Part shown: one piece after another, positions 58,734 to 58,945 of the stretch
Layout of the letters: every line of letters starts with the position of its first letter
Numbering within the stretch: position 1 is the first letter of the stretch
Source: Escherichia coli
GTDB taxonomy: Bacteria; Pseudomonadota; Gammaproteobacteria; Enterobacterales; Enterobacteriaceae
Assembly (NCBI RefSeq): GCF_003334335.1
Contig: NZ_QOWQ01000015.1
Direction: 5' to 3' (one strand)
Length of the DNA stretch: 64,000 bases
The notes under the pieces: generated by a model
The model's input: only the letters and a program-made list of their open reading frames with translations
What the model was told of the DNA's origin: nothing
Database searches by the model: none
Program-made: the position numbers and the translations under genes

Positions 58734-58850
58734 AAAAAAAAGCGGATCCTGGAGATCCGCAAAAGTTCACGTTGGCTTTAGTTATTCGAGTTGAGAAACT
58801 CTCGAAACGGGCAGTGACTTCAAGGGTTAAAAGAGGTGCCGCTCCGTTTC
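58734..58850 (-). ncRNA. oxyS: OxyS small regulatory RNA (~109 nt plus U-tail), divergent from oxyR
   Basis: Reverse complement of 58742..58850 reads GAAACGGAGCGGCACCTCTTTTAACCC...GCGGATCTCCAGGATCCGC followed by a T-run; matches recalled OxyS including its terminal hairpin. Confidence 0.85.
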
Positions 58851-58877
58851 TGTGAGCAATTATCAGTCAGAATGCTT

Positions 58878-58935
58878 GATAGGGATAATCGTTCATTGCT
58901 ATTCTACCTATCGCCATGAACTATCGTGGCGATGG
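58878..58935. promoter_or_regulatory. OxyR autoregulatory / oxyS activation site between oxyS and oxyR
   Basis: GATAGGGATAATCGTTCATTGCTATTCTACCTATCGCCATGAACTATCGTGGCGATGG with repeated ATAG/CTAT elements. Confidence 0.5.
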
Positions 58936-58945
58936 AGGATGGATA

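Follow-up and report, generated by a model that had tools for sequence, protein, structure and literature searches.

The divergent oxyS–oxyR locus of Escherichia coli: a shared OxyR operator, a reported second oxyR promoter within oxyS and the sequence context of the OxyS RNA

The DNA analysed in this study, a 64,000-nucleotide stretch of Escherichia coli contig NZ_QOWQ01000015.1 (hereafter the window), carries the gene of the small RNA OxyS divergently oriented to oxyR, which encodes a peroxide sensor. The two genes are flanked by argH and sthA:

57306 to 58679, plus strand: argH (K-12 MG1655 annotation, converted)
58734 to 58850, minus strand: oxyS (Rfam RF00035 match and identity to MG1655 b4458; 110 nt plus U-tail, 117 nt in RefSeq K-12)
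58946 to 59863, plus strand: oxyR (K-12 MG1655 annotation, converted; MG1655 start 4158490)
59846 to 61246, minus strand: sthA (K-12 MG1655 annotation, converted)

Window positions 56956..60456 align to MG1655 4156500..4160000 with 0 mismatches in 3,501 bp. The annotated MG1655 gene oxyS (b4458, 4158278..4158394) corresponds to 58734..58850, in agreement with the location given in a preliminary description of the window. A search with the Rfam covariance model of OxyS, which had been proposed there as a check, returned a full-length match at 58741..58850 on the minus strand (RF00035, model positions 1–110 of 110, score 139.5 bits, gathering score 75, E = 4.6e-29). The 305-aa protein starting at 58946 matched the NCBIfam OxyR equivalog NF008361 over residues 1–305 of 305 (632.9 bits, cut-off 329), which assigns it to the LysR family, and the equivalogs of argininosuccinate lyase (ArgH) and of the Si-specific transhydrogenase (SthA) were matched as well. 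Compared to oxyS (b4458) and oxyR (b3961) of K-12, the sequence is identical over 3.5 kb, coordinates, start sites, operator and the neighbours argH and sthA are alike, and no difference was found inside the locus. We are thus dealing, almost certainly, with the canonical E. coli oxyS–oxyR locus, which is already fully documented (Altuvia et al. 1997 and Toledano et al. 1994, cited through PMC5002191 and PMC7967276). The present analysis established the identity of the locus, its coordinates, where its motifs lie, their conservation, the RNA fold and the homology to Serratia; for start sites, footprints, redox-dependent activation and autorepression we rely on the literature.

The coding ends of oxyR and sthA are convergent and overlap tail to tail by 18 bp (59846..59863), likewise in the K-12 annotation. 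The coordinate offset to MG1655 is 4099667 at metF and katG and 4099544 at argH and oxyR; the window is 123 bp longer than MG1655 somewhere between 34168 (katG) and 57306 (argH).

OxyS had been described as a 109-nt RNA at 58742..58850. Its strand and its 5' end at 58850 are exact according to both the Rfam match and the K-12 annotation. The 3' end had been set at the last base of the terminator stem with the U-tail omitted, and the RNA measures 110–117 nt: an older annotation comprises 110 nt (4158285..4158394, ending at 58741), while the current RefSeq entry comprises 117 nt and ends at 58734 with the U8 tail. The disparity between 109, 110 and 117 nt is a matter of historical convention and not a substantive error.

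The distance between oxyS and the oxyR start codon, described as about 95 bp, is exactly 95 bp (58851..58945, oxyR ATG at 58946). Published transcription start sites of MG1655 are 4158395 for oxyS, 4158457 for oxyR P1 and 4158351 for a second oxyR promoter, P2 (PMC7967276, supplement), which correspond to window positions 58851, 58913 and 58807, respectively. A distance of 63 bp separates the start points of oxyS (58850) and oxyR P1 (58913), whose promoters overlap in back-to-back orientation. The following elements were located in the spacer:

58859 to 58864, minus strand: oxyS -10 element GATAAT, 8 nt upstream of 58850, 5/6 match
58876 to 58905, plus strand: oxyR P1 promoter, -35 TTGATA (58876–58881), 18-bp spacer, extended -10 TGcTATTCT (58897–58905), start at 58913
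58934 to 58948, plus strand: oxyR Shine-Dalgarno sequence GGAGGA (58934–58939) and start codon ATG (58946–58948), from the sequence, the K-12 annotation and the NCBIfam start

P1 was also reported by a promoter scan, and its hexamers are nearly invariant across genera except at position 4 of the -10 element. The ATAAT core of the oxyS -10 element is likewise conserved; four of its five positions are invariant among 59 sequences and the fifth is kept in at least 90% of them. The oxyS -35 element is poor: the candidates TATCCC or TTATCC at ~58882..58888 reach at most a 3/6 match. Such a weak -35 would fit an activator-dependent promoter.

Two further reading frames were considered. An in-frame ATG at 58916, 10 codons upstream of the annotated oxyR start, follows the P1 start by 3 nt and is located inside an OxyR half-site (IR1, see below). 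It was rejected as a start codon and is probably not used: the strong Shine-Dalgarno sequence GGAGGA is positioned for translation from 58946, where the K-12 annotation and the NCBIfam model begin as well, and the Serratia counterpart of the upstream ATG lies 28 nt upstream and thus out of frame. The Shine-Dalgarno sequence itself is close to invariant across species. An 87-aa plus-strand open reading frame at 58592..58855, which runs across the end of argH and oxyS, was treated as spurious.

To locate OxyR sites, the published consensus (ATAGnTnnnAnCTAT-N7-ATAGnTnnnAnCTAT, 20 positions) was scored over the whole 64-kb window. The best match, with 16/20 positions, is found at 58888..58924 in the oxyS–oxyR spacer. 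Among 200 shuffled windows, 3 contained a score of at least 16, and the number of such matches expected in the spacer under a binomial model is 2e-5. As had been described, the spacer is rich in the half-site motifs; it holds one ATAG and three CTAT compared to 0.35 expected from the density in the window (Poisson P ~5e-4). The following sites can be read in this region:

58879 to 58924, no strand assigned: extended OxyR operator with the ATAG-n7-CTAT pairs IR3 (58879–58893), IR2 (58888–58902) and IR1 (58910–58924)
58888 to 58924, no strand assigned: 37-bp site for oxidised OxyR, 16/20 consensus match, conserved position

Counted from the oxyS start, the 37-bp site spans -38 to -74; counted from the published start of oxyR P1 (58913), it spans -25 to +12. 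The centres of IR3, IR2 and IR1 lie at -35, -44 and -66 from the published oxyS start site, exactly as published (PMC5002191). IR2 overlaps the -10 element of oxyR P1, and at oxyS it is centred, together with IR3, at -44 and -35, respectively.

In order to assess conservation, we used an exact 20-mer from the OxyS linker (see below) to collect 64 loci from other Enterobacterales species, 58 of which were measurable for operator position. The operator starts 58 bp before the oxyR ATG in 57 of these 58 loci and scores 15–17/20. Moreover, the segment 58876..58925, comprising the oxyR -35 element, the operator and the extended -10 element, is nearly invariant in an alignment of 59 sequences.

The preliminary description had proposed that one bound tetramer activates oxyS and autorepresses oxyR. 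The placement of the same site at -38 to -74 of oxyS and at -25 to +12 of oxyR P1 is the one that opposite effects on the two promoters would require. According to the footprints of Toledano et al. 1994, as relayed in PMC5002191, oxidised OxyR contacts four successive major grooves, and the reduced protein contacts two groove pairs one helical turn apart; the same paper describes oxyS as activated by oxidised OxyR only and oxyR as repressed in both redox states. The extended operator covers the core promoter and start of oxyR P1, and its end adjoins the weak oxyS -35 element. An OxyR tetramer on this operator would block RNA polymerase at P1 in both redox states, resulting in autorepression, and only the oxidised tetramer, bound to the four successive major grooves of 58888..58924, would recruit the polymerase to oxyS. 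The established mechanism, in which one tetramer sits on the oxyR core promoter beside the oxyS -35 element, is thus supported, with a geometry deduced from motif positions and a regulation known from the literature.

The arrangement resembles that of ilvY–ilvC, cynR–cynT and gcvA–gcvB, which are grouped with oxyR–oxyS in PMC5002191. In these LysR-type modules, the regulator gene is divergent from its target and several inverted-repeat half-site pairs occupy a short spacer, with a distal site over the regulator promoter for autorepression and a proximal site abutting the target -35 for activation. Both features are found here: the operator lies over the core promoter and start of oxyR, and the proximal half-site abuts the poor -35 of oxyS. 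The placement described for RF00035, divergent from oxyR with an OxyR site upstream of the promoter, is found as well. The divergent target here is a non-coding RNA, as it is in gcvA–gcvB, and induction is signalled by a disulfide within the regulator instead of a small-molecule ligand (PMC5002191).

Two lower-scoring consensus matches lie elsewhere in the window. The second-best (32898..32934, 15/20) is located 15–51 bp before the metF ATG (32949) and may be due to chance, with scores of at least 15 reached in 28 of 200 shuffled windows. The third-best (34072..34108, 14/20) ends ~60 bp before the katG ATG (34168). We take this match to be the OxyR site of katG, and the window therefore presumably holds a second promoter of the OxyR regulon.

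A description of oxyS and oxyR as divergent and non-overlapping gives an incomplete picture, because the reported P2 start falls inside oxyS. This start was identified in published dRNA-seq and Cappable-seq data, according to which OxyS overlaps the 5' UTR of the P2 transcript by 41 bp (PMC7967276). P2 was reported to be dominant in stationary phase, and its authors suggested interference with OxyS (PMC7967276). We assigned promoter hexamers to this start as follows:

58772 to 58807, plus strand: putative oxyR P2 promoter, -35 TTGGCT (58772–58777), 17 bp, -10 GAAACT (58795–58800), start at 58807; hexamers assigned here

The two genes might be coupled in an additional way, as the oxyR mRNA from P2 would be antisense to the first 41–45 nt of OxyS and would read through the oxyS promoter, with interference by collision or by pairing. 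The start site at 4158351 is reported in PMC7967276, and TTGGCT and GAAACT, 17 bp apart, lie at the right distance upstream of it. We nevertheless regard this coupling as unlikely, since the putative -10 element matches the consensus at only 3/6 positions and is absent from the promoter-scan output, and since the arrangement TTGGCT-17-GAAACT is kept only in Escherichia loci; in other genera, indels in the loop of the middle OxyS hairpin break the P2 spacing. No functional test was found in the literature consulted on oxyR P2. In any case, coupling through P2 adds to the explanation by a shared operator and does not replace it.

On its other side, oxyS converges with argH, and an intrinsic terminator was predicted for each gene:

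58702 to 58728, plus strand: argH intrinsic terminator, stem 58702..58724 overlapping a T6 run at 58723..58728 (terminator scan; termination inferred)
58734 to 58760, minus strand: OxyS intrinsic terminator, stem 58742..58760 and U8 tail 58734..58741 (terminator scan; termination inferred)

Both lie inside 58702..58760, i.e., within 59 bp, which bears out the earlier statement that two opposed terminators are found within about 60 bp; in this strain they are separated by 5 bp, T-run to A-run. Folded alone, the argH hairpin reaches -16.0 kcal/mol (z -4.1) and the OxyS hairpin -12.4 kcal/mol (z -4.4). Each of the two predicted terminators, located where a transcription unit ends, consists of a G+C-rich hairpin with a U-run directly behind it. 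The surrounding 1 kb contains two terminator-like sites compared to 0.9 in shuffles, a number that is not significant alone. It is the placement and not the count that matters: the argH terminator begins 23 nt past the argH stop codon (58677–58679), and the other coincides with the 3' end of the Rfam OxyS match.

The opposed terminators could be read as a selected unit that insulates argH and oxyS from convergent transcription. In favour of this reading, both hairpins are strong, each has its own U-run, and only 5 bp separate them. Comparison between strains and species makes it very improbable. In other species, OxyS lies 34 to 242 bp from the argH stop, and in several of them, with intervening genes, the distance amounts to 1.5–3 kb. 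Within E. coli, the match breaks exactly at the junction (58734–58741) in 1,872 of 5,426 complete genomes, and the two such strains that we examined carry ~3.1 kb with manD, an MFS transporter gene and a REP-like element between argH and oxyS. Strain A15, one of those with the manD insertion, lacks the K-12-type argH terminator and has the REP-like element, while its OxyS terminator with the A8/U8 tracts is intact. The insertion was located as follows:

L004 10899 to 14000: inserted segment; the junction corresponds to window 58729..58741

The sole constant is the OxyS terminator, the stem and U-run of which are kept in 55 of 55 aligned sequences of other species. Hence, as judged from these sequence comparisons, the back-to-back terminators are real in this strain, yet they arise from gene content and are no conserved feature of the module. 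OxyS would end at its own intrinsic terminator, by chance near the convergent terminator of argH.

Gaps of 2.5–3.2 kb between argH and oxyS were also seen in Escherichia sp. E1V33, E. whittamii, Citrobacter braakii and C. amalonaticus. At the other extreme, the argH stop is only 34–35 bp from the OxyS linker in Trabulsiella (L029, L043, L052); argH of this genus would be devoid of a separate terminator hairpin because this distance holds the OxyS terminator alone.

That the RF00035 match might be a chance resemblance or a decayed copy, with a functional oxyS elsewhere in the genome, has a negligible probability and is already refuted by sequence comparison, as the match is full-length (E = 4.6e-29) and does not differ from the gene annotated in K-12, all 5,426 complete E. 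coli genomes carry the stretch from the OxyS terminator up to the oxyR start at ≥95% identity with a median of one place per genome, and oxyS is syntenic with oxyR in 57 of the 58 measurable loci of other species.

The OxyS RNA, with a sequence identical to the one encoded here, is known from the literature to bind Hfq and to be induced by H2O2 via OxyR. The predicted OxyS fold consists of a 5' hairpin, a middle hairpin, an unpaired linker and the terminator (-32.9 kcal/mol, z -2.8). This minimum free energy structure has the layout of RF00035, i.e., three stem-loops with a single-stranded A/U-rich linker before the terminator, and both the linker and the U8 tail are present in the sequence. 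The same plan was found in 17 diverse homologues folded singly, with the middle hairpin being optional. The linker stands out within the RNA:

58760 to 58785, minus strand: OxyS linker AACUAAAGCCAACGUGAACUUUUG, invariant and single-stranded, homologous to the 3' UTR of a Serratia peroxidase gene

This linker has been identified as the base-pairing region for nusG (PMC5793797). Its 20-mer 58760..58779 served as the search pattern for the loci described above, and its invariance is consequently ascertained and not independent.

The Rfam structure of the two 5' helices was tested on an alignment of 32 sequences; the terminator helix was excluded from the pair count because indels in its loop misalign its 3' arm. 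One of the sequences (L005) had been trimmed at the wrong end, with added gaps as the only effect. Paired cells made up 72% compared to 26–54% with slid partners, and 25 double-change cells were counted compared to 11.6 in shuffles. Two of five covariation measures were not above shuffles for these two helices in the 32 sequences. Taken together, covariation in this alignment lends moderate support to the 5' hairpin. RNAalifold applied to all 55 OxyS homologues retained four terminator pairs only, since in Klebsiella, Raoultella and Enterobacter the 5' half of the RNA does not align with the E. coli form. In agreement with this, the 5' hairpin is only 40–70% conserved in the 59-sequence alignment, unlike the adjacent segment 58876..58925.

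Divergence of the 5' part is also reflected in the Rfam scores. Several syntenic homologues fall below the gathering score of 75, namely those of Enterobacter (65.1 bits), Pluralibacter (62.9), Lelliottia (61.2), Klebsiella (47.0) and Kosakonia (41.2), and the Klebsiella/Raoultella forms reach only 41–65 bits. Standard annotation would miss these genes because their 5' domains have diverged or been replaced. The sub-threshold homologues, identified by their Rfam score, are located at:

L009 2849 to 2961: sub-threshold OxyS homologue
L011 8114 to 8217: sub-threshold OxyS homologue
L024 8744 to 8855: sub-threshold OxyS homologue
L051 7869 to 7963: sub-threshold OxyS homologue
L065 8144 to 8247: sub-threshold OxyS homologue

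Five Citrobacter homologues (L007, L015, L017, L025, L060) are devoid of the middle hairpin and measure 107–108 nt including the U-tail. The homologue of Intestinirhabdus alba (L034 4305..4481) carries an insertion of ~60 nt that forms a long near-perfect hairpin, with -78.7 kcal/mol for the whole RNA.

Besides OxyS, the window contains further matches above the respective Rfam gathering scores: naRNA4 (3843..3920, minus strand), two copies of ES036 (8925..8966, minus strand; 28319..28360, plus strand), the ClpQY (hslVU) promoter element (22618..22675, minus strand), the leader of ribosomal protein L31 (27287..27339, plus strand) and a cobalamin riboswitch (63840..64000, plus strand), into which the window end cuts.

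Two Serratia loci in the comparative sample, in which the 20-mer lies 918 bp from oxyR, bear on the origin of OxyS. Here, a gene for a 243-aa peroxiredoxin-glutaredoxin lies divergently to oxyR behind the same operator, and its stop codon is followed by the OxyS linker and terminator. The prx-grx gene found divergent from oxyR in Serratia, Dickeya and Vibrio is the published ancestor of oxyS (PMC8825220). The Serratia gene occupies the same place relative to oxyR, its operator scores 16/20 and lies ~56 bp before the oxyR ATG, its -10 region is homologous, and its 3' UTR and terminator are homologous to OxyS nt 65–117; it differs by a 243-aa coding sequence in place of the ~60 nt of E. coli OxyS 5' sequence. 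The local alignment score of 54 between OxyS nt 65–117 and the Serratia 3' UTR and terminator was reached by 0 of 1,000 shuffles. Homology to the 3' end of a gene in syntenic position in an outgroup marks OxyS as a 3'-end-derived small RNA, as far as sequence comparison goes.

This agrees with the published finding that the 3' end of a peroxidase mRNA gave rise to OxyS (PMC8825220; Krieger et al. 2022). The same study derived the 5' part of OxyS from the final ~65 nt of the region coding for the peroxidase (PMC8825220). When we aligned the 5' 60 nt of seven OxyS variants to Serratia grimesii, neither the prx 5' UTR, as expected under an internal-deletion model, nor the last 100 nt of the prx coding sequence gave an alignment beating shuffles. 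On this view, the promoter and operator were inherited from an ancestral OxyR-controlled peroxidase gene and that the 3' third of OxyS corresponds to the 3' UTR and terminator of that gene. The module would be compact because both its promoter and its 3' end were inherited from the lost peroxidase gene, an evolutionary reason for the layout that was published in 2022.

Overall, our analysis supports the interpretation given in the preliminary description, with three refinements: the U-tail of OxyS, the location of oxyR P2 inside oxyS, and the closeness of the two terminators as a strain-specific trait. The underlying biology, in which a redox-switched LysR-type tetramer combines repression of its own gene with activation of a divergent small RNA, has been on record since the 1990s, and the remaining points, i.e., what oxyR P2 does and where the OxyS 5' domain comes from, are of specialist interest only. 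It is conceivable, if quite improbable, that in Escherichia the P2 promoter, with its putative -35 element in the otherwise invariant OxyS linker, makes the long oxyR mRNA and OxyS antagonistic through pairing or transcriptional interference and that, in addition, the 5' two-thirds of OxyS are fast-evolving and have been replaced in some lineages. If the 5' part has been replaced, it would not be a remnant of the peroxidase coding sequence, and the target sets of OxyS would differ between genera.
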